This document shows, one piece after another, positions 28,181 through 57,206 of a stretch of 64,000 nt of DNA. Numbering within the stretch: position 1 is the first letter of the stretch; every line of letters begins with the position of its first letter. The notes under the pieces were generated by a model, which saw only the letters and a list, made by a program, of their open reading frames with translations, was not told the origin of the DNA and did not search any database. The DNA comes from Escherichia phage UPEC06: sequence record MW250786. One strand, given 5' to 3'. The position numbers were made by a program, and so were the translations under genes.

Positions 28181-29176
28181 ATGCAAAATGGTGATTTTCA
28201 AATCCTGGATTACACTGGCCTGATCTCTACTCTGCCGCGTGTTGATACCCTGCTTCAAAGCATGAACCTGTTCACTGAGAACTTTGGTCGTACTACTATC
28301 GCTAAAATCGAACGTCGTGATGACGGTGCTGGTCAGATCAATGCTGTACAGCGTGGTAGCGTTCGTCAGCACCTGGGTAATGATCGTAAAAAGATCGTCA
28401 ACCTGAATATCCCGTTCTTCCCTCTGGACCGTTCTATCGACCGTGCAGACATTCAGAACTTCCGTGAATTCGGTACTGACAACGCTCCGGCAACTGTTGA
28501 AGCTGAAGTGGCTCGTCACCTTGCTAGAATTCGTCGCAGTCATGCAGTTCTGAAGTCTAAAGCAATGTACGCTGCTCTGAAAGGTACTTCCTGGTCGCCA
28601 AATGATCCGGTTTGTGATTACGACTACTACGATGTTTGGGGTGTAACCCAGCAGACTGCTGACGTTGACTTCACCGCTCTGGCTATTGACCCGATTGAAG
28701 TGCTGGAAGCTGAAGCTCGTGCACACATCATCGATTACGCTGGTGACCAAGGTGACAACTACGAGATCGTCGTTATGGCATCCCGTCAGTGGTTCTCTGC
28801 TCTGATCGCTCACCCGCAGGTAACTGGTGCATATTCTCAGTACCCTTCTACTCAGGAAGTCCTGCGTCGTCGTCTGGGCGGTAATGCCAACAACCGTATC
28901 TTCGAACACAAGAACATCCTGTTCATCGAAGACATTTCCGGTAACATCCCTGCTGGTGAAGCATACATCTTCCCTCGTGGTATCGATCGTATGTTCGAAA
29001 TCTATTACGCGCCGAGCGACACTCTGGAAGGTGCTAACCAAGTAGCTCAGGAACTGTATGTATTCTTCAAAGAATCTCAGTACCTGCGTGAAGCGAAGAT
29101 CGAATCTGAAACTTCCTTCCTGACTGTTAACAACCGTCCTGAACTGGTAGTTAAGTCTGTTGGTAAGTTTGAATAA
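28181..29176 (+). CDS. major capsid protein (lambda gpE-like family suggested)
   Basis: 331 aa, strong SD, follows scaffold/decoration genes, followed by a strong terminator. Confidence 0.55.
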   Translation: MQNGDFQILDYTGLISTLPRVDTLLQSMNLFTENFGRTTIAKIERRDDGAGQINAVQRGSVRQHLGNDRKKIVNLNIPFFPLDRSIDRADIQNFREFGTDNAPATVEAEVARHLARIRRSHAVLKSKAMYAALKGTSWSPNDPVCDYDYYDVWGVTQQTADVDFTALAIDPIEVLEAEARAHIIDYAGDQGDNYEIVVMASRQWFSALIAHPQVTGAYSQYPSTQEVLRRRLGGNANNRIFEHKNILFIEDISGNIPAGEAYIFPRGIDRMFEIYYAPSDTLEGANQVAQELYVFFKESQYLREAKIESETSFLTVNNRPELVVKSVGKFE

Positions 29177-29192
29177 TCTTAATAACTGATTA

Positions 29193-29220
29193 AAGGTCAC
29201 CTTCGGGTGGCCTTTTTTAT
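29193..29220 (+). terminator. rho-independent terminator after the major capsid gene
   Basis: AGGTCACC-TTCG-GGTGGCCT hairpin followed by TTTTTTAT. Confidence 0.6.
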
Positions 29221-29300
29221 TATGCCTGTACAATTTAGGCAAAATAGTGTACCATTATAAGATAGGCTATTAATCTAATCAATGACGAAGGAGTAATTTA

Positions 29301-29894
29301 ATGTCTAAGCAAACTCACTTGGAAATTTTTAAAAGTGAATATCACATGCTCAAGTTCTTCGGTGAATATCTAGAAAAGCTTGATGTAAACACCTCTGCAC
29401 GTTTAGGTGCATTCCTTTACAGCTACGACGGAAAACTAGTCCTTGCCCGTGGCCTTTATGATTTTCTAACTCAAATGGAAAAGATGACCGCTCTCGGTAT
29501 CGACACCCTTGCTTCTGTGCAAAAAGGTACAAGTTTCCTAGTATTCTTTAAAGAGAAGCCTAAAGATCCTTTAAAATTCCGTTTGGATGTTAAGAAAATT
29601 GAGGCTGTCAAAGAAGCCATTGTTACTGATACTCCAACTAAGGTAATGGAAGAGTCTGTACTTGTCAACACTAAAGTTGAAGAAGTTAAAGAAGTTGAAG
29701 TAAAGGAAGAATTAACTGCTCGTACTGAAGAAGAAAAATCTCAGATCTTAGCCAAGGCTGAAGAACTGCGTGACGACAGCAAAAAGTCTGCATCTAAGGC
29801 GGCATTGGAAGCTTTCGCTGTGGAATACGGCATTTCACTGAGCAAAGGTAAAACCTTTGATGGGATGCTTGAAGATTTAGCTGCTGCACTTTAA
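29301..29894 (+). CDS. hypothetical protein (first gene of the collagen-like fibre module)
   Basis: Strong SD; C-terminal half charged and helical (EEVKEVEVKEELTARTEEEKSQ). Confidence 0.4.
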   Translation: MSKQTHLEIFKSEYHMLKFFGEYLEKLDVNTSARLGAFLYSYDGKLVLARGLYDFLTQMEKMTALGIDTLASVQKGTSFLVFFKEKPKDPLKFRLDVKKIEAVKEAIVTDTPTKVMEESVLVNTKVEEVKEVEVKEELTARTEEEKSQILAKAEELRDDSKKSASKAALEAFAVEYGISLSKGKTFDGMLEDLAAAL

Positions 29895-29946
29895 TCTCAC
29901 CTCATGCCCCTGTTCAGGGGCTTAAATCCCTAGGAGAATTTTATAA

Positions 29947-32900
29947 ATGGCTGAATATAATGATAAGGTCGTGGAAGCATTCGTTACTGCTCCTGATCCT
30001 GTCGTAACTACCACTGGTGGTGGAGTTATTTTTAACGGTATTGAAACGGAAGATACTGTATCTACCCTGTTAGTTGGTAATGGTACTGCCTCTTCCCCTC
30101 TGCAAGCTCAAGTTAAGCTATCTCGCCGTGCAGGTAACGCCCTGACTCTGGTTCAGACTGATAACGAGGAAGGCTTGTTTGCTTCCGCTGGAGATGCTAA
30201 AGTATCTACCTCTCAGGCGAACGTTGCAAAATACGTCACTGCGGAAGAAGCTGCTGCTCAAGGTGATGCCAGTTTGGAAGGTGTTCTGGTTGAGCCAGTT
30301 CATGCTACCACTACCGCTGTTGGTGACGCACTGGAAATTACCGCAGATCCTCTGGTTGCTAAAAACTCCCGTATATCCCTGAAAGTTTCCACCTCTTCAA
30401 CTAACGCTTTGTCTGTAGACCCTGATGGTTTGGCAGTTAAAGTTTCCCCCGCTATCGACAACAGCTTGCAAGTTCGTGAAGGTGCACTGTATGTAGCTCC
30501 AGTTGGTGCTGACATTTCTCAAGATGCAGGTAACAAACTGGAACAACGTTCAGATGGTCTGTTTGTAGAAACCATCAAAGGTGACAAAGGCGATCAGGGT
30601 GAACAAGGACCAGCAGGTCCACAAGGCCCAGCCGGAGAAACTGGACCTGCTGGCCCGCAGGGTGAAAAAGGGGATAAAGGGGATACTGGAGAAGTCGGTC
30701 CTGCTGGCGCAACTGGACCTATCGGTCTGACTGGCGCAACTGGCCCTCGTGGTGTAGAAGGTCCTCGTGGCCCTGCTGGTATTGGTATCAACATCCTCGA
30801 CACCTTGGCATCTGAAGATCAATTGCCTTCTGTTGTTGATCTTGCGAATGGTGATACATACGTAATCGGACAGAGTTTCTTTACCGTTATCACTGAAGGT
30901 GGTATCAAACAATGGAGAAACGTAGGTAACTTCGCTGGACCTGAAGGTCTTTCTGCATTTGAAGTTGCTGAAACCGCAGGCTTTGTTGGAACAGTCGATG
31001 ACTGGTTGGCTACCCTTCGTGGTGCTGACGGTATAGGTCTGCAACTCCTTGGTTCTTTCCAGCGTATCGAAGATCTTCCTCAAGAAGAGAACAAACCTGG
31101 TGATGCCTACATCATTCAAGAAAAGATGTATGTTTGGACTGGTGATACAGATGGCTGGCAACCTGTAGGACAGATCGGTCCTGAAGGTCGTTCTGCTTAT
31201 CAGGTCTGGCTGGCTAACGGGAACGTAGGTTCTCAGCGTGAATTCCTTGAATCACTGAAAGGTGAGAAAGGTGATACTGGCGATCAGGGTCCTCAGGGTA
31301 TCCCAGGTGCAGATGGTAAAAATGCTAACGCCATTAATATCTTAGGTTCCGTTGCAGATCAGGCGAGTTTGCCAGAAGGTGCAGATGCAGGTGATGCTTA
31401 CCTGATCGGTACTAACGTATTCGTTTCTGATGGTGCTGGCAACTGGCAAGACTTGGGATCTTTCCAAGGTCCGCAAGGTCCTACTGGTGCTAAAGGCGAC
31501 AAGGGTGACAAAGGGGACAAAGGGGACAAAGGCGATAAAGGTGATGACAACTATGCCATCGCAGTTGCTAACGGTTTCCAAGGATCAGTAAATGAATACC
31601 TTGCATCTATCAAGGGTGAGAAAGGTGACGTTGGTGCAACTGGCCCTCGTGGATTGGCTGGTCCACAAGGTGAACAAGGTCCTGTTGGTGCGGGTCTGAA
31701 TATCCTTGGCTCAGTAGCTTCCGAAGATCAATTACCTCAGACTGGTATTAGTGAAGGTGACGCTTATCTGATTGAAGCTGATCTTTATATCTTCACTGGC
31801 GGTCAGTGGACTAACGTTGGTAACATCAAAGGTCCTCAGGGTGATATTGGTCCTGTAGGTCCACAAGGTCCTATCGGCTTGACTGGTGCACAGGGACCGC
31901 AGGGTGCAACAGGAGCACAAGGCCCTGCTGGCCCACAAGGTGAGACGGGTCCACAAGGTGGTATCGGTCCACAGGGAGAAACTGGAGAGAAAGGCGATAA
32001 GGGCGATAAAGGCGACAAGGGTGATATCGGAACGGGTATCGTAGCTCGTGGCGTTGTTGCAACCCAAAGTGCACTTCCTTCCGGCGCAGCACCTGGTGAT
32101 TTCTACGTTGTAGAAGATGAAGGTAACGGTTACGCTTGGGACGGTACAGCTTGGGTTTTAACTGGATTAGCTCGTGGACCTCAAGGTCTTAAAGGCGATA
32201 CCGGAGAAACCGGAGCCAAAGGTGATAAGGGCGATAAAGGTGATGCAGGCGATGCACTTAAGCTGAGAGGCTTGGTTGCAACTTCCGCTGAACTGCCTTC
32301 CACTGCTGAACTTGGTGACTTCTATGTCGCTGAAGACACCGGAATTGGTTACGCTTGGGATGGTGTTGCTTTCGTTTCTGCCGGAACCGTTAGAGGACCG
32401 CAAGGTGAAGTAGGGCCGCAGGGTGAAGTTGGTCCTCAAGGACCTCAAGGCGAGAAGGGAGATGCTGGCGAGCAAGGTCCTCAAGGATTGGTCGGTGAAA
32501 CAGGTGCAAAAGGTGATAAAGGAGATAAGGGTGACGTTGGCTCTGGTCTGATTCCGAGAGGAACTTTACCATCTCAAGCAGATCTTCCTCAAACTGGTGA
32601 AGTTGGTGACTTCTACGTAGCTAACGATACTGGTATTGGCTATGCTTTTGATGGAACTGCATTCGTAGAAGCTGGAGTTGCCCGTGGTCCACAGGGTGAA
32701 CAAGGACCCCAGGGTGAACAGGGACCACAAGGACTTAAAGGTGATACTGGTGAAACAGGTGCTCAGGGACCTCAAGGTGTTCAAGGTGAGAAAGGTGATA
32801 CCGGAGAACGTGGAGAGGTAGGTCCGCAAGGTGATCAGGGTCCGCAAGGTGAGCAAGGTCCTCAGGGTGATATCGGACCAGGTGTAGAGATCATTGGACG

Positions 32901-33747
32901 ATTTGATACCTCTGATGAATTACCTTCCACGGGTACTTTGGGTCAAGGTTACCTTATCCAAGGCGACTTCTGGGGTTGGACTGGTGCAGCATACGAGAAC
33001 TTGGGTCGTATTCAAGGTCCGGTTGGACCAGTAGGTCCTACGGGTGACCAAGGACCACAAGGCCCTGTCGGTAACAAAGGCGATAAAGGCGACCAAGGGA
33101 CCCTTTGGGTAGTTTTTGCTCGTGCACCAATGGTGAGCGATGGTCGTGTTAACGATCTGTACCTCAACTCTTCCACTCTGGAATATTACCGTAAAACTTC
33201 CGCAACGAACTGGGCACTGCTCGGATTCTTAGGTGGTGGTAACGTGTATGACGCACCAGGGGACGGAAAGCTGTATGTCCGTACTGATGGTGGTTGGGTT
33301 GAATTACCTACCGCAGAAGTTCTGGAAGCACCTCGTGATGGTAACCAATACGTCCGTAAAGACGGCGCTTGGACAACTGTTACAGTTCCTGTAACGGAAG
33401 CACCACTTGAAGGTGGATTCTACGTCCGTGAAAATGGTGCGTGGGTTAAACTGGATCAGTACGATTTACGTGTTGTTGCTTCAACTGGTGCAATTGATGC
33501 AAGCTCTGGTAATGCTTGGACTTTAGATGGTACAACCAACAAGTCCTTGACTATCACCGGATTGCCAGCAGGAAGGGCTAAAACCATAGTTTTACGATTC
33601 ACTGGTAACGGTGGTCAGATTAACTGGGATAGCCAGATCGCTTGGTCTAACGGAACAGCACCGACCCTCGGAGCTACCCGCACTATCCTGACCCTGTTCT
33701 GGGATGGTGAATTCCTGACTGGTACTCAGGCAATGACTGTAGGTTAA
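29947..33747 (+). CDS. collagen-like repeat fibre protein (side-tail-fibre-like)
   Basis: 1266 aa; long Gly-X-Y runs alternating with eight ~50-aa modules; C-terminal YVRxDGxW repeats x3 typical of phage tail-fibre repeats. Confidence 0.7.
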   Translation: MAEYNDKVVEAFVTAPDPVVTTTGGGVIFNGIETEDTVSTLLVGNGTASSPLQAQVKLSRRAGNALTLVQTDNEEGLFASAGDAKVSTSQANVAKYVTAEEAAAQGDASLEGVLVEPVHATTTAVGDALEITADPLVAKNSRISLKVSTSSTNALSVDPDGLAVKVSPAIDNSLQVREGALYVAPVGADISQDAGNKLEQRSDGLFVETIKGDKGDQGEQGPAGPQGPAGETGPAGPQGEKGDKGDTGEVGPAGATGPIGLTGATGPRGVEGPRGPAGIGINILDTLASEDQLPSVVDLANGDTYVIGQSFFTVITEGGIKQWRNVGNFAGPEGLSAFEVAETAGFVGTVDDWLATLRGADGIGLQLLGSFQRIEDLPQEENKPGDAYIIQEKMYVWTGDTDGWQPVGQIGPEGRSAYQVWLANGNVGSQREFLESLKGEKGDTGDQGPQGIPGADGKNANAINILGSVADQASLPEGADAGDAYLIGTNVFVSDGAGNWQDLGSFQGPQGPTGAKGDKGDKGDKGDKGDKGDDNYAIAVANGFQGSVNEYLASIKGEKGDVGATGPRGLAGPQGEQGPVGAGLNILGSVASEDQLPQTGISEGDAYLIEADLYIFTGGQWTNVGNIKGPQGDIGPVGPQGPIGLTGAQGPQGATGAQGPAGPQGETGPQGGIGPQGETGEKGDKGDKGDKGDIGTGIVARGVVATQSALPSGAAPGDFYVVEDEGNGYAWDGTAWVLTGLARGPQGLKGDTGETGAKGDKGDKGDAGDALKLRGLVATSAELPSTAELGDFYVAEDTGIGYAWDGVAFVSAGTVRGPQGEVGPQGEVGPQGPQGEKGDAGEQGPQGLVGETGAKGDKGDKGDVGSGLIPRGTLPSQADLPQTGEVGDFYVANDTGIGYAFDGTAFVEAGVARGPQGEQGPQGEQGPQGLKGDTGETGAQGPQGVQGEKGDTGERGEVGPQGDQGPQGEQGPQGDIGPGVEIIGRFDTSDELPSTGTLGQGYLIQGDFWGWTGAAYENLGRIQGPVGPVGPTGDQGPQGPVGNKGDKGDQGTLWVVFARAPMVSDGRVNDLYLNSSTLEYYRKTSATNWALLGFLGGGNVYDAPGDGKLYVRTDGGWVELPTAEVLEAPRDGNQYVRKDGAWTTVTVPVTEAPLEGGFYVRENGAWVKLDQYDLRVVASTGAIDASSGNAWTLDGTTNKSLTITGLPAGRAKTIVLRFTGNGGQINWDSQIAWSNGTAPTLGATRTILTLFWDGEFLTGTQAMTVG
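31495..31545 (+). repeat. tandem 9-bp coding repeat (GDK)n inside the collagen-like gene
   Basis: ggcgacaag/ggtgacaaa/ggggacaaa units encode [17 protein letters not shown]; similar runs near 31981-32020, 32215-32250 and 32515-32535. Confidence 0.6.
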
Positions 33748-33754
33748 TTTTTAA

Positions 33755-33779
33755 ATGGGGGCTTCGGCCCCCTCTTTTC
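33755..33779 (+). terminator. stem-loop / weak terminator after the collagen-like fibre gene
   Basis: GGGGGC-TTCG-GCCCCC hairpin followed by TCTTTTCAG. Confidence 0.4.
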
Positions 33780-33793
33780 AGAAAGGAGTTAAT

Positions 33794-34429
33794 ATGGTAA
33801 TCGATAAGATTTATGGCTGGACACCTATGATCCGTATGTCTGACATGCGATATCCGGTATACCTGGCCGACTATCGTGCTGAGTATCCCAACGTATCTAT
33901 CGGCAGTTTTGTTTATGCTGTTGGTATGGCTGAGGTTGGATATCATGCGGTTTATGACGTAACTATGCCGCAAGGTGATGTTGTTACTGAAGGATCGCCG
34001 GAATTACGTGAAGATGGATTCTGGTACAGAACTTGGAATGTTAGAGACTTCACCGAACAAGAGATCGCTGATAACCTTGCTCGTGAAAAAGAGCAGCGTA
34101 TCAATGAGGCTCGGATGACTCTTGATAATGAGAGATCCGAAGGGGTTGTTGTAGCCAGCAAACGATATCAGTCAGACGCTCAAGCTTTTGCTTATTATAG
34201 TTCCATCTCTGCTGTTGCTAAAGACTCACCTGAAGAAGTTTTTCACTTAGTTACTTCTGATAATCAGGTAGAAGAATTCCTCGGTGATGAAGTTATTGCC
34301 CATATAAAAGAAATTCAAAAAGTTAACGCAAAAGTTTATGACGAGTTTGCGAAAATTGTAAAATCTATCCGTGAAGCAAGTTCTTCTGAAGAAATCCCTC
34401 AAGTACCTCCCTCTTTTCAAAATCTTTAA
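33794..34429 (+). CDS. hypothetical protein, possible fibre assembly/chaperone protein
   Basis: Start at ATG after AAAGGAG (track start 33755 lies in the hairpin); sits between two fibre genes. Confidence 0.3.
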   Translation: MVIDKIYGWTPMIRMSDMRYPVYLADYRAEYPNVSIGSFVYAVGMAEVGYHAVYDVTMPQGDVVTEGSPELREDGFWYRTWNVRDFTEQEIADNLAREKEQRINEARMTLDNERSEGVVVASKRYQSDAQAFAYYSSISAVAKDSPEEVFHLVTSDNQVEEFLGDEVIAHIKEIQKVNAKVYDEFAKIVKSIREASSSEEIPQVPPSFQNL

Positions 34430-34459
34430 TAGTAAATAAACTTACTTAAGGAGCATTGC

Positions 34460-36058
34460 ATGAGTAAAAGTATTAGAGGAATGGCAGGTCATAATAACGG
34501 TGTTTTTTACGGAAATGCCCTTTATGACTTAGAAAGAAAGGTTAAAATGGATTTTAAAGATATCATGGAAAAAGGTGATTCCAGCCAAACACCTGGTCCA
34601 GAAGGTCCACAAGGACCAAAAGGGGATACTGGCCCTGCCGGACCTGTAGGTCCTGTAGGTCCGCAAGGACCACAGGGTGAGATCGGGCCTCAGGGTCCTA
34701 CTGGCCCTCAAGGACCTGTCGGAGCTACTGGTCCTACCGGACCTGAGGGTAGTGAAGGACCACAAGGCCCTCAAGGAGAGCAAGGTATAGCTGGTCCAGT
34801 AGGACCAAAAGGGGATACTGGTGAACAAGGTCCTCAGGGAGAGCAAGGACCCGCTGGTCTAAAAGGCGATACTGGGGATATTGGCCCTGCTGGACAAGAA
34901 GGGCCAATAGGTCCGACTGGCCCAACTGGCCCTGCCGGACCAAAGGGGGATGTTGGTCCTCAAGGACCTAAAGGCGAAACTGGTGAGCAGGGACCTATTG
35001 GACCACAAGGCCCACAAGGGGATGTTGGTCCTGTAGGTCCAGCAGGGCTTACTTTCCGAGGTTTTTATGATCCTTTAGTTGAATACTCTCAGAACGATAC
35101 TGTATCTTACAACGGATCTACTTATTTTTCCTTAAGAACAAGTATAGGCGCTAGTCCAGACACATCACTTGAAGATTGGTCTTTATTGGCAGCAGAGGGA
35201 GCAAGAGGCCCACAAGGCCCAACTGGCCCTCAGGGACCTAAAGGCGACCAGGGTGAGATTGGTCCTGCCGGAGCTACCGGTCCTGAAGGTCCGACTGGCC
35301 CAACTGGCCCGACTGGACCCGCTGGACCGAAAGGGGATAAAGGAGATAAAGGAGAGGTTGGACCTCAAGGACCTAAAGGCGACCAAGGGGTTATGGGAGA
35401 ACAAGGACCGCAGGGTATCGCTGGAACTACTGGACCTGCTGGTCCACAAGGACCTAAAGGCGACAAAGGAGATGTTGGCCCTCAAGGTCCCGCTGGTCCA
35501 CAAGGTTTGGATGGTATCCAAGGCCCAGCGGGTCCCCAGGGGATTAGAGGAATACAAGGACCTAAAGGCGACACTGGTGAGCAGGGAGAGAAAGGGGATA
35601 AGGGTGACAAGGGTGAGAAAGGTGATGCAGGAATATCAAGAACATTCCTTAAGGTTAAAACATCATCTGTTGGCACCAATCACGCGATCAAAATGCCAGC
35701 ACCTCTTGATAACCTATCTATAGGCATAAGGCTTGATTCAGCGGTACGTTTTAGTATTAGGGGTTGGATTGATACAGATACGACAGCCAGAAATGTTAGG
35801 GGGGATATTGAAGGCTTCAATAACTCTGAAAATTACTTCAATACAACGGTAAGACAATTGATATCTTCATCAACTGCAACTGGCACAACCCTTGTAGCCG
35901 ATATCAGCGAATTCCAAAGAATTAGGCCATATACATTTAGCTTCTTTGAAACAACAACAGAGACAATGTGGAGAGTAACTATAACTCTCTTCACGTCAGG
36001 GTATGTAGTAACTGACAATCAATGGCTATGTATAGAAGCTGTTAGACTTGATGCGTAA
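34460..36058 (+). CDS. collagen-like repeat fibre protein 2
   Basis: 532 aa; two long Gly-X-Y blocks separated by a short non-collagen segment; non-collagen C-terminal domain. Confidence 0.65.
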
Positions 36059-36111
36059 AATAACTGACGAAGGGACTCGCCTACTGATTTGTTCTTTCCT
36101 TTAATAATAGC

Positions 36112-36140
36112 AAAGCCACCTTCGGGTGGCTTTCTTTTTA
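36112..36140 (+). terminator. rho-independent terminator closing the collagen-like module
   Basis: AGCCACC-TTCG-GGTGGCT hairpin followed by TTCTTTTTAT. Confidence 0.6.
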
Positions 36141-36160
36141 TACAAATGACTTTCTCTTTT

Positions 36161-36184
36161 AATTGTGGTAAGATGATACAATAC
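36161..36184 (+). promoter_or_regulatory. candidate promoter motif (AATTGTGGTAAGAT...TACAAT)
   Basis: ATTGTGGTAA(A/G)AT also occurs at 36745-36766 upstream of the next gene. Confidence 0.3.
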
Positions 36185-49390: not shown

Positions 49391-51025
49391 ATGGCTAGAC
49401 CAACAACACCGATTGTTGTCTTTGCGGCACAAGATGTTAACCTTCCTGGCACTGGAAGACCTAACAAATCAAAACCGATTGATGACCTTTTAGCGAAGGG
49501 CTATGACAAAGGACAAAAACCAGCGGCAGAGGAATTCAACTATATTCTTCACCAATCTGGTGCTTGGCTTAACTGGATCGTAGAAGAGAAGTTCCCTGAA
49601 GTTGAAGAAGAATATAAGCGACTGATTCAGGAACTCGAAACACGAGTAAACAATCAACTGGAAGTTATTCGTGAAGATGTTGCAAACGTAAGACAATCAG
49701 TTGCAACCTTGAGAACTTATGTAGAGCAAACTGTTGCAGACATTCGTCGTGAGATCACTGCGGTTGATCAGCGTGTTACTCGTTTGTCTCAAGACTTGGA
49801 TAATGCTGTTTCCAGATTAAACGCCCGTATTGATGAGCTTGAACCTCGTTTAGTTCCGATCGGTGCAATTCTTACTTGGGCAGGCCAAACACCTCCGGCG
49901 GGATTCTTGGAATGTAATGGACAGGTATACAGTACATCTCAAAACCCGAAACTTTATCAAGTCCTTGGTAGGAACGTAGTACCTGATTATCGTGGATTGT
50001 TCCTTCGTGGCTGGGCGCACGGATCTGGCGCTTACGATCCTGACTCTGGTCGTGCTTTGGGTTCTATTCAAGGTGATGCGATTCGAAACATTACTGGCGC
50101 GATGGGTTACGAAAGTATTCGTACTGACCACGGATATCGTGAGAGTGGTGCACTTTATACGCAATATAACTCAAACTCAGGTCCTGATCACGATCGTAAA
50201 AACCCAGCGGGTGATGTTCGATTTGATGCAAGCCGTGTTGTTCCGACTGCACCAGAAAACAGACCTAAGAACGTCGCAGTGATGTATATTATCAAGACTG
50301 ATCAGGCACAAGGTACGGGAAGTCTGTCACCAACTGCACTTGTTACTACGCCGGACACTATTACAAACCGCGTAGGGTTTACTCAAGGGATTTCTGCTCA
50401 GGTTCTCCCTGCAAACTTGGCAAGTCAATACCCTGTGACGTGGACTTCTCAGAACGGTAATGTTGCAACAGTGGATAGTGCAGGTAACGTAAGATTAACT
50501 GGTCCAGGTGAAACTAACATTATCGCCTCTATCTCTACTGGTATCTCTGCCCAAGTTAAAATAGTTTCATATACACCACTGACAGCAATCAGTATCGGTA
50601 GCATACCTAGTGTAGAGGTTAATGATTCCGAGGTTATTCCTGTTAATAGAACACCTGCTAACTCTAACGAGCCTCTCGTGTATTCTACCAGTAATGCTAA
50701 CGTCGCTGTTGTAACTCAAAGCGGTTACGTATCTGGTGTTTCTCCAGGTACAGCGGTAATAACAGTTCGTGGGTCTATCACAGGCATCCAAGCCACAAGA
50801 CAGGTCACTGTAATTCCTGCAACGATTGTTCAGACCATAGAGGATGTTCGTTTAGGTCTTGAGCAACAGACGACAATGAATGGCGATGATTATACAAATC
50901 CTGTGCGTGCTCCGGCGGGTTGTGTTATTACTGGCGTTGTATCAGCAGGTCTTGGGTTAAATCAAGGTTATTATAAACCGATCCAGAAGCGTATATCTGG
51001 CGTATGGGTAACGGTGGAGGGTTAA
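49391..51025 (+). CDS. tail fibre protein with tail-collar domain and Ig-like repeats
   Basis: PIGAILTWAGQTPPAGFLECNGQVYSTSQNPKLYQVLG...YRGLFLRGW matches the phage tail-collar motif; C-terminal half has repeated Ig-like segments. Confidence 0.6.
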   Translation: MARPTTPIVVFAAQDVNLPGTGRPNKSKPIDDLLAKGYDKGQKPAAEEFNYILHQSGAWLNWIVEEKFPEVEEEYKRLIQELETRVNNQLEVIREDVANVRQSVATLRTYVEQTVADIRREITAVDQRVTRLSQDLDNAVSRLNARIDELEPRLVPIGAILTWAGQTPPAGFLECNGQVYSTSQNPKLYQVLGRNVVPDYRGLFLRGWAHGSGAYDPDSGRALGSIQGDAIRNITGAMGYESIRTDHGYRESGALYTQYNSNSGPDHDRKNPAGDVRFDASRVVPTAPENRPKNVAVMYIIKTDQAQGTGSLSPTALVTTPDTITNRVGFTQGISAQVLPANLASQYPVTWTSQNGNVATVDSAGNVRLTGPGETNIIASISTGISAQVKIVSYTPLTAISIGSIPSVEVNDSEVIPVNRTPANSNEPLVYSTSNANVAVVTQSGYVSGVSPGTAVITVRGSITGIQATRQVTVIPATIVQTIEDVRLGLEQQTTMNGDDYTNPVRAPAGCVITGVVSAGLGLNQGYYKPIQKRISGVWVTVEG

Positions 51026-52662: not shown

Positions 52663-55600
52663 GTGTCGTCTAATACTGATATATTGGCACTGGTAAGTAC
52701 CGAAGCAGATCTTGCTGTTGACCAGATCATTGAAGACTCTCGAAGACTTCATTTGATCGTCAACGGAACTGCAACAGAACAAGCTGTTACAGAAGATGGT
52801 AGCTTAATCCCTAGTGTACGTAAAGCGATAATTGATAACTTTTATTTTAAAACTCCACCGTTACCGTGGAGAAATGGAAGTTCAGTTATTGAATTCAATC
52901 AGTTATATGCATTTACCGATGTAAATGGCAACGTAACTTGGTGGTATGCCCCAGGTGCAACTACCAGCACTCCTGTCGTTATGCGAGACAGTCCAATCAA
53001 CGACGGTAAGTTCAGACCTTTCTTCGATAAAGGTAACATTCAAGAAACTTACGCCCCTATCCTTTCCCCTGTTTTTCGTGGAAACCCTACTGTACCTCTT
53101 GCTGCTGAAGGTGATAACTCATTTACTATCGCGAACACAGCTTGGGTTAGTCGAGAAATAGAAAAAGTACGTGGTGAGGTTCTTGAAGAGTCCAGAGGTG
53201 AATTCCAAAACATTATCGTTGCAGATGATGCGAGTCTGAAAGATCTCTATGTAAGTGGAGAAACCATCTTCACTGGCGACAGGATCGCTGCTCTTGATGC
53301 CGAGTTATCTTTAAAAAGATTACGAATGACAGGGACAGACGCAGAAATCGCATTTGAACAAAATGGCGTTCCACCCCAGGCAGGGTTAACAAAAAGAACA
53401 AATATCAAGCCTTTCCAAGTCACCACTGGTGTTGTTGATACCGATAATATAACTGCGAGAGAGATCAAGGTTGGAAATACCTCTGTTTCCACGAATTCTC
53501 TTGATGTTGATGGATTCATGCAAGGTGACTATCTTCACTTAGAGGGTAATGCCAATAACGCAGAAGACCGCCCACAACTGATCGTTGACGGTATTGCGGA
53601 AATAAATACTCTTCGTGTGACGAACACCATTGAAGGATTGAAGGCTGACGTTGAAGGTCTGGATATTAATCCTAACAGCATTGTGGTTGAAAGAACTGCG
53701 GAGATTAAGGGAAATACAACCCTTGGTGCAGATCTTGCCGTTACTGGCAATACGGTATTGAAAAATGTAAGAATCGAAGGTACTCTCACGGGTGCTGGAA
53801 TCGGTGTTGACGGGAAAGACATTTCCCCTCGTAATGTGAGTGCAACATCCGTTACTGTGGCAGAGAGCTTAAACATTACTGGACCTACTACGGCTTCCGG
53901 CGACGTTACGGTAAACAACCTGACGGTTAATGGAACACTCAGGGCCGATATCGACTTTGGAACTGCTGCTGTTGAATTCCAAGATCTGACTGTGACTAAC
54001 AAGGCAACGATCAAGGATCTTGAAATCACCGGAAACCTGACGGGAGTTACAGTCTCTGTTGATGGTGAAGCAATCTCCCCTTCTTCGGTGACAACCACAG
54101 GAAACATCGATGTTGGTAACAACATGCGTGTTCGTGGTGATATTACTCTGGACGGTGAGTTAAGTATCCCAAGCTTAGATACTGGGGACATAACGGCTGC
54201 TGCAATTGATGGTGCGAGCCTCTCAGTTAGTGGCGACATTACCGCAGGAACAACTTCGACCACAACGGTTAACAATCTTGTAGTCACAGGAACCACTACA
54301 GGAATCACTGTAACGGGCAATGTTGACGGACAAGACATTCTCCCATCCTCTGTAGAAACAACGTCTGTAGTGGCCTCTGAGAGAGTTACAACGGCAAACC
54401 TGACATCTACAGGTGACACTCAGGTAAATAACCTGACAATTACTGGAACTGTAACAGGATTCGATGTAGATCTTACCGGAAAGGACATTCAGGTTAATAC
54501 CTTGACGGTTACTCGCGGGTCAACTTTTGACGAGGTTACTGCTAATAACATAACCAACAATCAAAAGATTACCACAGTAGACCTTCAGGTTACTGGAAAC
54601 CTGACGAATGCAGACGGTGAACAATTCTTTGCAAACGTCACTGGTCAAGATATACTTCCTAATAGTGTGCAGTCTGCAACGTCTGTGAGAACTAAAACGC
54701 TACGTGTCGAAGAGACTAGCCTATTGGAAGGTGCTGTTACCTTAAATGATGGTTTGACTATCACTGGTGGTAATATCACATCTGTTCAAGGTCAAGCAAG
54801 CTTCAATGACGTACAGGTATTTGGATCTCTTCTGGACGCGAATGGTAATGCCTTAGGGACAGCGGAAAGCATAAACGGTAAAGATATCTCTCCTCGTAGC
54901 GTTACTGCTCAAGTTGAGATTCAGACTACTGCAATTGTTGCTACAGGTCAAGCTGAAGTTGGTTCTTTGATTTCAACTGGACAAGTAATGGCAGGAAGCT
55001 TAGAGGTTTCAGGGATAGGTAATATTGGTCAGGTTATTACCGACGACGTTCGTGCTGGAAAGGTAACTTCTGGTAACACCGTTATTACTCGTACTGTTGG
55101 ATCTAGCGATCCTGCTCTTGAAGTTCGTGGACCAGGTGAGATTCAGGGTGACCTTAATGTAACCGGAACTGTAACTGGTAACATTGACCTTAGCTCTCAA
55201 GACGTTAACGTTGCTTCAATGACCTCAACGGGAACAGTAAATGCCCTTTCCATTGAGTCTCGTACATCGGTAACTGGATTGTCTGGTACATTCGGTGAAG
55301 ATTATGAAGGTGCACCTACCTATGGTATAACTTCTCTTTCCGGCGCAAACATCAACAAGAACCTTCGAGTTGGTGGAAACCTGACTGTTGTTGGTAACAT
55401 CTCTGGCAATATCGACTTATCTGGAAAGGCGATCGAGCCTGCATCTTTGTCTACCACGACAGCTACGTTAACGACGGCGAACATAACAGACCTGACTGTA
55501 ACTGGTCAGTTTAATATCCCGACTGTACCGTTAAATGTTCAATCCCTTAGTTCTGAAAACGCTATTTCCGCAAGCAAGTTCAGCACCACACCAAAAGAAG

Positions 55601-55896
55601 TAAGCACCACCTCTTCTTCTTACATCCCAGACGGCTCAACGAGCATATATAACGTAAACGTTATAAATGATGTTGAAGTGAAAGCGCCGATTGGCCTGTT
55701 GAGTTCAGGAAAAGGTGAGTCGGTATTCCTCTTCTTTGAACAGGATGGTACTGGTGGACATGCGGTAACATTCGGATCGGAGTTTGTTGTGCATGGTACT
55801 GAAACCATCAAAACAGATGCAAACACTGTATCGGTAGTTAACATGGTTTATCGTGGCAAAGGCCCATTGATTGACGTATTCATCACTCGTCGCTAA
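52663..55896 (+). CDS. large tail fibre / tail spike protein
   Basis: 1077 aa, Thr/Val/Gly/Asn-rich with quasi-repeats (VTGN.TG...DISP.SV); downstream of baseplate genes. Confidence 0.55.
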   Translation: MSSNTDILALVSTEADLAVDQIIEDSRRLHLIVNGTATEQAVTEDGSLIPSVRKAIIDNFYFKTPPLPWRNGSSVIEFNQLYAFTDVNGNVTWWYAPGATTSTPVVMRDSPINDGKFRPFFDKGNIQETYAPILSPVFRGNPTVPLAAEGDNSFTIANTAWVSREIEKVRGEVLEESRGEFQNIIVADDASLKDLYVSGETIFTGDRIAALDAELSLKRLRMTGTDAEIAFEQNGVPPQAGLTKRTNIKPFQVTTGVVDTDNITAREIKVGNTSVSTNSLDVDGFMQGDYLHLEGNANNAEDRPQLIVDGIAEINTLRVTNTIEGLKADVEGLDINPNSIVVERTAEIKGNTTLGADLAVTGNTVLKNVRIEGTLTGAGIGVDGKDISPRNVSATSVTVAESLNITGPTTASGDVTVNNLTVNGTLRADIDFGTAAVEFQDLTVTNKATIKDLEITGNLTGVTVSVDGEAISPSSVTTTGNIDVGNNMRVRGDITLDGELSIPSLDTGDITAAAIDGASLSVSGDITAGTTSTTTVNNLVVTGTTTGITVTGNVDGQDILPSSVETTSVVASERVTTANLTSTGDTQVNNLTITGTVTGFDVDLTGKDIQVNTLTVTRGSTFDEVTANNITNNQKITTVDLQVTGNLTNADGEQFFANVTGQDILPNSVQSATSVRTKTLRVEETSLLEGAVTLNDGLTITGGNITSVQGQASFNDVQVFGSLLDANGNALGTAESINGKDISPRSVTAQVEIQTTAIVATGQAEVGSLISTGQVMAGSLEVSGIGNIGQVITDDVRAGKVTSGNTVITRTVGSSDPALEVRGPGEIQGDLNVTGTVTGNIDLSSQDVNVASMTSTGTVNALSIESRTSVTGLSGTFGEDYEGAPTYGITSLSGANINKNLRVGGNLTVVGNISGNIDLSGKAIEPASLSTTTATLTTANITDLTVTGQFNIPTVPLNVQSLSSENAISASKFSTTPKEVSTTSSSYIPDGSTSIYNVNVINDVEVKAPIGLLSSGKGESVFLFFEQDGTGGHAVTFGSEFVVHGTETIKTDANTVSVVNMVYRGKGPLIDVFITRR

Positions 55897-55935: not shown

Positions 55936-57171
55936 ATGATCCCTTTTCCAATTATTAATTTCGGTGGCAGTGTTCCACTACCTGTAGGCGTTACAATCAA
56001 GTATGCAGTAAGTACCAGCACCGGAAATATTTTTATTCTGCTTACCAATGGGCATCTATATGTAACTGGATCTAATTATCTAAACGGACTTGGTAAAACA
56101 GGGACCACAAATAATGCAACTTCGGGATGGTCACTTACTAACACAGGTGTTGAAGAAGTTTATGAGGCAGGAACAGAAAGTACACTGTACGGCGGTGTGT
56201 GGGTTAAGAAAAATAATAACCACTATGAATATATCTCTGCTGTAATCTTCCCCACTGTTGACACAACTCTCCAAAACAGTTGGAACGTCTTGCCTGAATC
56301 TGCATACATTGTCGATGGCGTAAATATCTTATCTTCCGCAATACAAATAGCCAGATCATACGCGATCCAGCCCGACGGCACTGTTTACAGACTTCTTCCA
56401 GAGGGACCTCAAGTAGCTTGGCCTGAGAAAACAAAATACCTGTATTTTGCAAACTATAATGCTATTCGTGTCGAGGTTGACGGAACTTTAAAATACCGAG
56501 GCGACAATGGTATAGATCAAGTGGCAGGCACTTCTGCCGGAACAACATTATCAACTTGGACAACCATCGGGGATTCTTCTGTAAGGTATATTAGGGCAAA
56601 ATGTGCTCGTGGTCAAGTGGCTAACACGAGTGGCGGTTCAGGTGCTCAATCTATTGTACTTGTTGTTGCACAGAGGGAAGATGGGTCATGGGATGCAGTT
56701 GGATCGGCAGCAAGAGCAGGGATAAACTCAACCAACGTCCTCGGTCCTAATTTAGCACCTATGACAAGCATTCCTGCTGGAGTTGAAGTTTACCTAACTA
56801 ACCAGATCAGTTATACAAACGCAAGTGTGAGCACTAGGGCAGCACTGCAAGTATTCATCTCTGACAGGGTTAATGGAGTTTATCAATCGACAGGTGGACA
56901 AGGTGGATACACATACTCCTTATTTAGAGATCTTCCTATAACCACCAACGCAACATCTTTTGAAAGCATACATCAAGATATTATAGATGATGGCGGCATT
57001 CTCCATATGACTGGCTCATTGGCTGACACTTTCAAAGTGATTGTTAGTGGTAATGGTAATCTTTACTGGACAGGGAGAGGTTACACAGGGGCTATGTACC
57101 CTGCTGACTTTACGGCCTCTAATACGATAGCTCAGAAGTTTAACTTGGAAGGTATAGTTATTCCAGCATAA
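55936..57171 (+). CDS. putative tail fibre / receptor-binding protein
   Basis: 411-aa Gly/Thr/Ser/Asn-rich protein, last gene of the rightward late block. Confidence 0.35.
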   Translation: MIPFPIINFGGSVPLPVGVTIKYAVSTSTGNIFILLTNGHLYVTGSNYLNGLGKTGTTNNATSGWSLTNTGVEEVYEAGTESTLYGGVWVKKNNNHYEYISAVIFPTVDTTLQNSWNVLPESAYIVDGVNILSSAIQIARSYAIQPDGTVYRLLPEGPQVAWPEKTKYLYFANYNAIRVEVDGTLKYRGDNGIDQVAGTSAGTTLSTWTTIGDSSVRYIRAKCARGQVANTSGGSGAQSIVLVVAQREDGSWDAVGSAARAGINSTNVLGPNLAPMTSIPAGVEVYLTNQISYTNASVSTRAALQVFISDRVNGVYQSTGGQGGYTYSLFRDLPITTNATSFESIHQDIIDDGGILHMTGSLADTFKVIVSGNGNLYWTGRGYTGAMYPADFTASNTIAQKFNLEGIVIPA

Positions 57172-57206
57172 AGAAAAGGCGCTCAAATGAGCGCCTTTAT
57201 TTTTAT
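57172..57206. terminator. bidirectional rho-independent terminator between convergent genes
   Basis: AAAGGCGCTC-AAAT-GAGCGCCTTT hairpin flanked by an A-run upstream and ATTTTTAT downstream. Confidence 0.65.

Follow-up and report, generated by a model that had tools for sequence, protein, structure and literature searches.

Collagen-like fibre genes in the capsid-neck interval of Escherichia phage UPEC06, one of them a candidate head-fibre gene

A block of four genes separates the major capsid gene from the neck genes in Escherichia phage UPEC06, and two of the four encode collagen-like fibres of 1266 and 532 amino acids (aa); we analysed this block within a 64,000-nucleotide stretch of sequence record MW250786, referred to here as the window. 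The closest functional precedent for the role we propose for the 532-aa protein is gp12 of phage SPP1, described in a review as a collagen-like trimeric auxiliary capsid protein at the quasi-sixfold hexamer centres with a proposed role in adhesion, a likeness that is one of function. Solved capsid fibres include B2 gp45, crAss001 gp21/gp29 and phi29 gp8.5, and B2 gp45 is a homotrimer on the quasi-sixfold axes of its capsid. The flagellotropic myovirus 7-7-1 wraps flagella with long flexible head fibres of 88-114 nm, one per pentamer and built from an unidentified protein, which resemble the fibres considered here in form. Nearer relatives are phages W70 and phiTE, where W70_129-W70_132 and phiTE_214-217 form an orthologous locus with the same gene order and the same flanking hairpins as the window. 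SPP1 gp12 is tiny (~6.6 kDa, ~8 triplets, no distal domain), whereas the 532-aa protein combines a knot and a variable tip with as many as 100 triplets.

By sequence similarity the window phage belongs to Septuagintavirus in the Vequintavirinae, as its block matches Escherichia phages A73, W70, A7_1, A5-4 and LTH01 at 90-91% identity over 71-91% of its length (megablast) and its capsid protein shows 100% identity with the LTH01 one and ~90% with the one of the Certrevirus phage DU_PP_IV. The block genes themselves are already known, annotated as tail fibres. What appears to be new is the placement of gene 4 in a family of head-fibre and decoration proteins through a shared anchor, together with evidence of exchange with siphoviruses for its collagen stalk and tip. 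We propose that the 1266-, 211- and 532-aa genes are cargo of an old accessory slot and that the 532-aa protein most likely forms trimers and stands on the capsid as a head fibre, an explanation that, taken whole, we judge to have slightly better than an even chance of being right. The interval is laid out as follows:

28181-29176, plus strand: major capsid protein (Pfam Phage_cap_E, 7.7e-38)
29192-29221, plus strand: terminator-like hairpin and T-run with a 10-bp stem and UUCG loop, directly 3' of the capsid gene
29301-29894, plus strand: gene 1, a 197-aa open reading frame (ORF; phrog_3259)
29947-33747, plus strand: gene 2, the 1266-aa collagen-like fibre ORF
33757-33772, plus strand: internal GC-rich hairpin GGGGGC-UUCG-GCCCCC followed by TCTTTTC, directly 3' of the 1266-aa gene
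33794-34429, plus strand: gene 3, a 211-aa ORF (phrog_4998; 212 codons including the stop)
34460-36058, plus strand: gene 4, the 532-aa collagen-like ORF
36112-36141, scoring on both strands: terminator-like hairpin and T-run with a 9-bp stem and UUCG loop
from 36198, plus strand: neck, sheath and tube genes (PHROG Neck1, minor head protein)

The four genes placed here by the initial annotation are borne out by the ORF list, at 197, 1266, 211 and 532 aa; the 212 aa given for the third is its codon count with the stop included, and the product has 211. An alternative 224-aa start of gene 3 at 33755 falls within the internal hairpin, and homologues begin MVID, so the product is likely 211 aa.

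The same interval can be followed through the subfamily, and what it carries after the core gene (gene 1) varies from genus to genus:

rV5-like (EmilHeitz): no cargo; the core-gene homologue has 281 aa
Mydovirus (KpS8): a 99-aa 'head fiber protein'
Seunavirus (PVP-SE1): a 918-aa fibre, a 214-aa protein and an 84-aa 'head fiber protein'
Certrevirus (phiTE, DU_PP_IV): a collagen fibre of ~1000-1100 aa, a ~215-aa protein and a 164-aa protein
Septuagintavirus (window): the 197-aa core gene followed by the 1266-, 211- and 532-aa genes

Comparison with related phages, which had been suggested at the outset, thus finds the slot content present, absent or swapped among relatives. It does not bear out an inserted block: the four-gene arrangement is common to Septuagintavirus, Certrevirus and Seunavirus. 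Nor do the terminators mark out a special module, as every genus examined has hairpins 3' of the capsid gene and 5' of the neck genes, even the rV5-like and Mydovirus genomes without a big fibre, such as EmilHeitz and KpS8. The phiTE and PVP-SE1 records annotate these flanking hairpins as terminators, and the hairpin after the big fibre gene is likewise conserved in Certrevirus and Seunavirus. As part of the explanation favoured above, we therefore read the block as an ancestral, hairpin-bracketed accessory slot in the capsid-neck interval of the Vequintavirinae, with variable cargo.

Gene 1, counted as a module member in the initial annotation, does not belong with the cargo: it is a subfamily-wide core gene, with homologues directly 3' of the capsid gene throughout the subfamily (Certrevirus, Seunavirus, Mydovirus), and its homologue W70_132 is missing from the virion mass spectrometry (MS) table of W70. 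With the rV5-like phages the 197-aa protein shares only its C-terminal ~50 aa (aa 144-197). This C-terminal region weakly matches the PHROG 'minor head protein inhibitor of protease' / inhibitor of prohead protease, and a head-assembly role is possible; we read gene 1 as a conserved, non-virion, head-associated gene outside the fibre set.

The head-fibre proposal turns on the architecture of gene 4, which falls into three parts:

34460-34594, plus strand: N-terminal anchor (aa 1-45), probably homologous to the N-termini of fourth-slot head-fibre and decoration proteins
34595-35638, plus strand: stalk of 51 triplets, a 48-aa CBM5/12-like knot (aa 199-246) and 49 triplets
35639-36058, plus strand: all-beta distal domain (aa 394-532), hypervariable, presumed adhesin

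Its 100 Gly-X-Y triplets would form a triple helix of ~86 nm; the CBM_5_12 match in the knot is sub-threshold in Pfam. All five Septuagintavirus versions follow the same plan with at least four different distal domains among them, and the distal domain of the window shares 31-48% nucleotide identity with all four Septuagintavirus relatives compared, compared with 95-100% in the flanks. Where the window has this collagen fibre, phiTE carries a 164-aa globular protein.

For the anchor, a database search with phiTE_217 returned proteins of 98-115 aa with the same first ~33 residues (76-81% identity) followed by short collagen, one of them the fourth-slot protein (115 aa) of Salmonella phage SSBI34, and the N-termini of PVP-SE1 gp67 and KpS8 gp069 are also related to that of phiTE_217. 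The Septuagintavirus 532-aa N-termini align with this fourth-slot module without gaps (hhalign probability 89%, E 2.3e-6). An anchor profile built from all genera scored 7.4 bits for the window and 18.2 bits for A7_1, values reached by none of 3000 shuffles, 5.6 bits for A73 (1 shuffle) and 4.4 bits for LTH01 (16 shuffles); a profile from PVP-SE1, KpS8 and the protein P0003 gave 9.3 bits for the window and 11.9 for A7_1 (0 of 3000 shuffles each) and 1.7 for LTH01 (102). A tblastn match of P0006 falls in register on the anchor, and gene 4, like the fourth-slot family, closes its slot, with the hairpin upstream of the neck genes coming next. The support came only from profile tests restricted to the N-terminus and from hhalign, and it makes a good but not conclusive case that the 532-aa anchor belongs to the Vequintavirinae fourth-slot family (phiTE_217, PVP-SE1 gp67, KpS8 gp069 and the SSBI34 115-aa protein). 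A PHROG scan of the 45-aa anchor alone gave no matches.

Members of this family point indirectly to the capsid. The fibre part of KpS8 gp069 matches B2 gp45 (6.5e-12), the crAss001 head fibres (5.9e-7) and phi29 gp8.5 (1.4e-5), so these solved capsid fibres match the fibre motif of the Mydovirus and Seunavirus fourth-slot proteins. The window protein shares the anchor of those proteins, with collagen in place of their fibre motif: the helix-turn-helix signature (…GGVK…FN.LL..LK.AG…) of KpS8 gp069 and PVP-SE1 gp67 is absent from the whole window, and we rejected membership of the 532-aa protein in the phi29 gp8.5 / B2 gp45 fold family for this reason. KpS8 has the anchor protein and lacks both the big fibre and the 211-aa protein, so the partner of the anchor must be a core virion component. 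In phiTE, phiTE_217 was assigned to an unmodelled 'Pagoda' density at the hexamer centre because of its very high MS abundance.

The other end of the protein leads to siphoviruses. Among 1.84 billion representative proteins the distal domain found only two homologue clusters; its close homologues are collagen proteins of T1-like siphoviruses, 61-71% identical in Rogue1, C119, phiKP26, JK06 and phiJLA23, and they are encoded between cement/decoration and major capsid genes in a metagenomic contig and in Rogue1 (gp21). The collagen-knot-collagen stalk is also found in Rogunavirus (Drexlerviridae) gp21 and in P0023. These gp21-type proteins adjoin the major capsid gene of a siphovirus virion and differ at the N-terminus, which is a DUF1737-like domain pair in place of the Vequintavirinae anchor. 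On our reading, a stalk-plus-tip cassette may be common to these lineages, each with its own capsid anchor. Several GenBank and RefSeq records of the T1-like head-module proteins (C119, phiKP26, JK06, phiJLA23, Sf12; Rogue1 gp21 at L014 4413-5858) label them 'DNA polymerase I', and phrog_22681 ('DNA polymerase') also matches their DUF1737-like N-terminus and collagen, which looks like a propagated annotation error. A literature search found nothing relevant on Drexlerviridae collagen proteins or on 9D82/9D93.

In the mechanism we propose, the ~40-aa anchor would attach the protein to a core feature of the capsid. The hexamer centre is the likeliest site, as inferred for phiTE_217 and demonstrated for B2 gp45. 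The ~86-nm stalk would hold out a rapidly exchanged distal tip, and the tip would give weak, multivalent and reversible adhesion, possibly to flagella or glycans, before the baseplate fibres engage.

Published MS places the cargo proteins in virions. In W70 the 1266-aa homologue W70_131 (phrog_3904, 129 kDa) gave 2032 spectra, the maximum of the table, with 1596 for the capsid protein, 728 for the 532-aa homologue W70_129 (phrog_5073, 53 kDa) and 114 for the 211-aa homologue W70_130 (phrog_4998, 24 kDa), and in Certrevirus CB7 the collagen protein CB7_10 and its neighbours (CB7_10/11) are virion proteins. The two collagen-like proteins are thus among the most abundant of W70 by spectral count, yet they are routinely annotated as tail fibres. 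A separate fibre set noted earlier at 49.4-57.2 kb is confirmed by matches of ORF 49391-51025 to the phiTE short tail fibre (phiTE_236; PDB 9CUY, 3e-202) and of ORF 52663-55896 to the phiTE long tail fibre (phiTE_241; PDB 9CUY, 1e-233), both of which attach to wedge proteins in the phiTE structure; the block lies 13 kb upstream of this cluster, outside the baseplate and tail-fibre genes. The earlier suggestion of head or whisker fibres, or a second adhesin set, holds in part, in that these are virion fibres distinct from the baseplate set and that a head fibre is well supported for the 532-aa gene; the 1266-aa protein may sit on head, neck or baseplate.

Several observations weigh against capsid attachment. 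In phiTE the 'Pagoda' density was assigned tentatively, from MS abundance only. The W70_129 counts come close to those of the short tail fibre, an 18-copy protein, and lack the clear excess expected of a capsid protein that fills all hexamer centres in 360 copies; however, few peptides from collagen regions can be used in MS, and the W70 counts are too saturated and too collagen-biased to tell 18 from 360 copies. Pairwise BLAST of the 532-aa protein with phiTE_217 was not significant, Smith-Waterman alignment of the N-termini reached only p ~0.02-0.05, a Certrevirus-only anchor profile gave the window protein -1 bit, and the anchor hidden Markov model, run against all 1040 window ORFs, ranked the 532-aa ORF 7th (E 7.3). 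A model of a two-distal-domain chimera, built on shallow alignments, reached a predicted local distance difference test score (pLDDT) of 43.6 and was not used, leaving the adhesin fold unsupported, and a PDB sequence search with the distal domain returned nothing useful.

Further points of this kind are also what would be expected if both collagen-like proteins were ordinary tail or baseplate fibres, the 'bundle of thin flexible tail fibres' of electron micrographs, encoded away from the baseplate cluster, in which case the 532-aa N-terminus would bind the tail or the larger fibre and not the capsid. All databases annotate the block fibre genes as tail fibres or side tail fibres, and micrographs of W70 and CB7 describe smooth heads and thin tail-fibre bundles. 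The phiTE cryo-electron microscopy paper lists, as part of the baseplate network, a third fibre that was not modelled and had been 'previously annotated in the genome', and seems to treat phiTE_215 in this way; because RefSeq product names label only phiTE_215, 236 and 241 as tail fibres, the third fibre is probably phiTE_215, the homologue of the 1266-aa protein. The 1266-aa N-terminus weakly matches residues 92-215 of the baseplate-anchored long tail fibre gp015 of 7-7-1 (PDB 9rkv_M, E 7e-4), the order of a fibre gene and then a chaperone-like gene is that of tail-fibre loci, and the MS counts are similar to those of 18-copy fibres. On the other hand, the other members of the 532-aa anchor family are head-fibre or capsid decoration proteins, the family occurs in Mydovirus without the big fibre, and the stalk and tip homologues lie inside siphovirus head modules. 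The attachment sites for short and long tail fibres on the phiTE wedge are taken by other proteins, and no similarity of the 532- or 1266-aa N-terminus to either of those fibres was found. We consider this alternative unlikely, though it is the one to be taken most seriously. The EHEC (enterohaemorrhagic Escherichia coli) prophage side-tail-fibre family EPclA-D was a rejected candidate: the Pfam scan of the block returned only Collagen, Fibritin_C and the sub-threshold CBM_5_12, with no PfN (PF08400), Pf2 (PF03406) or PfC (PF06820).

The larger fibre has a different plan from the candidate head fibre:

29947-30579, plus strand: N-terminal region without collagen (aa 1-211), carrying short shaft-like repeats and presumed to be the end nearest the virion
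30580-33105, plus strand: shaft of ten Gly-X-Y segments (129 triplets) interrupted by ~45-aa globular 'knot' repeats
33223-33459, plus strand: three tandem foldon-like beta-hairpins (aa ~1093-1171), presumed trimerisation and registration nucleus
33460-33747, plus strand: distal ~95-aa all-beta domain, conserved across phages of different hosts

Pfam Collagen (PF01391) matches the 1266- and 532-aa proteins at 4.6e-44 and 1.9e-47, with X mostly Pro and Y mostly Gln, Lys or Thr. From its 129 triplets, the collagen part of the 1266-aa protein would form a triple helix of ~111 nm, and the whole is presumably a trimer of ~150 nm and an abundant virion fibre. The foldon region matches Pfam Fibritin_C (1.8e-10) and, in the PDB, T4 fibritin foldon chains and foldon fusion constructs; the three hairpins would start triple-helix formation and set its register from the C-terminal end. 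Foldon-like motifs C-terminal to collagen are an arrangement that engineers build artificially and that here occurs naturally. At the same locus, a conserved N-terminus is encoded in Serratia phages, ABPH49, Certrevirus and Seunavirus, and the last two keep the distal end as well; the distal region is also found in jumbo-phage 'tail fibre' proteins. The N-terminus had no match among the phiTE chains in the PDB, and a large protein search with the distal domain gave none. Among baseplate, head and neck, a baseplate attachment is slightly favoured for the 1266-aa protein alone. Directly 3' of the long-tail-fibre gene, and preceded by a hairpin, the window also has a 411-aa ORF (55936-57171) that had no PDB match; its homologue W70_106 is a virion protein visible on SDS-PAGE (sodium dodecyl sulfate-polyacrylamide gel electrophoresis), and the phiTE homologue, phiTE_242, is an alternative candidate for the third fibre of phiTE.

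The 211-aa protein fits a DUF4376-type fibre assembly chaperone or adaptor, as judged from its predicted fold, its co-occurrence with the big fibre across the slot comparisons and its low virion abundance. PF14301 (DUF4376) is matched by 3 of 18 family members (2.5e-14), the window protein itself being unmatched, and the structural model (pLDDT 92.5) matches DUF4376 and 'tail assembly chaperone' proteins in a viral structure library (template modelling score 0.89, E 3.6e-17); the PDB held no close fold for the model and a PDB sequence search returned nothing useful. A small amount of the protein stays in the virion. UniProt A0A8T8L7D4, an entry in BFVD, is 100% identical to it, so this exact allele has already been deposited.

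The foldons raise a further possibility, that the 1266-aa protein is a fibritin-like neck whisker whose foldon end contacts or chaperones the long tail fibres as T4 Wac does. The T4 wac gene sits just upstream of neck genes. Gene 2 has a comparable position, before the neck genes of the window, along with foldon-type beta-hairpins in tandem. Neck whiskers have been reported for the related phage Sf14, and the phiTE paper hypothesises that the long tail fibre bends to the capsid and touches the third fibre. However, the phiTE connector consists of portal, adaptor, head-completion and terminator rings only, with no collar or whiskers described, and the fibritin matches are confined to the foldon, the shaft being collagen and knots without coiled coil and the N-terminal region bearing no similarity to the neck-binding one. 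Three foldons are present, none of them terminal, and a ~95-aa domain comes after them. We rejected membership in the T4 fibritin family on these grounds, and a neck whisker seems improbable.

That the whole block is a mobile cassette of recent acquisition, transcribed autonomously, is very improbable and already largely refuted by the sequence comparisons: terminators on both flanks, a promoter-like motif 3' of the upstream hairpin, exchange of gene 4 and part of gene 3 by recombination, and a gene 4 stalk and tip common to unrelated siphoviruses would suit it, but the four-gene order is kept in three genera whose capsid proteins are 55-90% identical, hairpins bracket the slot even when the core gene is its sole content, gene 1 is found subfamily-wide, neither an integrase nor repeats nor any other sign of mobility turned up, and swappable behaviour is confined to the gene-4 cargo.

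Returning to the head fibre, a bolder version can be offered tentatively, and we regard it as somewhat doubtful: that hexamer centres of Septuagintavirus capsids bear a sparse-to-dense corona of ~90-nm collagen-stalked trimers held by the 40-aa anchor shared across Vequintavirinae, that the stalk-tip cassette is traded between myoviruses and T1-like siphoviruses by swapping the anchor only, and that, joined by the ~150-nm foldon-nucleated fibre, whose place may likewise be the head or its vertices, these form a long-range capture net, for flagella for example, ahead of the baseplate fibres. Flagella capture is plausible because Certrevirus relatives are flagellotropic and 7-7-1 captures flagella with its head fibres; for Septuagintavirus, flagellotropism is only suggested in the W70 paper. 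If this version held, a single modular class would take in both the phiTE 'Pagoda' and the head fibres, of unidentified protein, that other flagellotropic phages carry. Even capsid anchoring of the 532-aa protein with an exchangeable tip would mean that host-range and engineering work must weigh a second, head-borne adhesin layer, in phages that are candidates for therapy and biocontrol. The short anchor would then be a ready-made handle for cargo display on T=13 capsids, and the unmodelled phiTE density would gain a testable family context.

Strong hairpins with T-runs at both block ends, as first described, are borne out by folding (29192-29215, -15.6 kcal/mol, z -3.2; 36112-36133, -16.0 kcal/mol, z -4.6). 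They have the form of Rho-independent terminators (GC-rich hairpin, U-run, intergenic position), and terminator activity is predicted. As bounds of a module they are less telling. The third hairpin lies inside the block, 21 nt 5' of the ribosome-binding region of gene 3; it is probably an attenuator, with no space for a promoter. Between 26 and 40 kb there are 22 terminator-like sites against 11.8 +/- 3.2 in shuffles, and equally strong hairpins with T-runs occur across the late region (22109, 22844, 41186, 43665, 47156, 55898, 57175), so that such bounds are not special to the block. The late-region hairpins coincide with gene boundaries that carry terminator annotation in phiTE, and the one at 57175-57198 is bidirectional, where transcription converges.

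Two promoter-like sites accompany the block hairpins:

29226-29268, plus strand: conserved intergenic block holding the promoter-like motif TTATAAGATA at 29255-29264
36147-36174, plus strand: putative promoter of the neck and tail genes, TGACTT, 16 nt and the extended -10 element TGGTAAGAT

The first is nearly identical between Septuagintavirus and Certrevirus, genera that the W70 paper puts at no more than 30% nucleotide similarity, and the arrangement of the second (TGACTT, 16 nt, TGGTAAGAT) recurs in LTH01, A7_1, DU_PP_IV and phiTE. The motif TKNTAANATA, which we infer to be a late-promoter motif, is modestly enriched, with 15 matches against 6.5 expected, a count reached in 1 of 100 shuffles. 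From these predicted signals the block is probably its own transcription unit with an internal attenuator, and the autonomy proposed for it survives as a transcriptionally delimited slot; a special autonomy does not, since a terminator followed by a promoter-like motif is, as far as sequence can tell, general punctuation of the late region. The minus strand between 6000 and 20000 carries many perfect or near-perfect sigma-70 promoters (TTGACA, 16-17 nt, TATAAT; for example 13213-13186, 10875-10848 and 17892-17864) in a leftward region of small ORFs, and they fit the early promoter class described for Certrevirus CB7.

The window block differs from W70 and phiTE in being pieced together, as a mosaic, from LTH01-like and A73-like segments, and its version of the 532-aa distal domain is unseen in any relative. 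Positions 28.2-31.0 kb resemble LTH01 (99-100%), 31.2-33.6 kb resemble A73 (up to 100%) and 34.2-36.0 kb are unlike every relative; in the phage collection no record covers the whole block above 91% identity. A recombination breakpoint lies at ~31000-31200 in the 1266-aa gene, where the best relative changes from LTH01 to A73/A7_1, and a patch at 31780-32380 within the repetitive collagen and knot shaft has 79-87% identity to all relatives. Opposite the collagen repeats, the minus strand holds Pro/Gly/Ser-rich ORFs (30594-30803, 31836-32018 and 35482-35679), which are most simply a by-product of GGN-CCN codon periodicity and not genes. Just upstream of the terminase and late region, at 20318-22060, the window has a cluster of five tRNA genes (Met, Tyr, Pro, Gly, Gln), and LTH01 has Tyr, Pro, Gly and Gln at the equivalent position.

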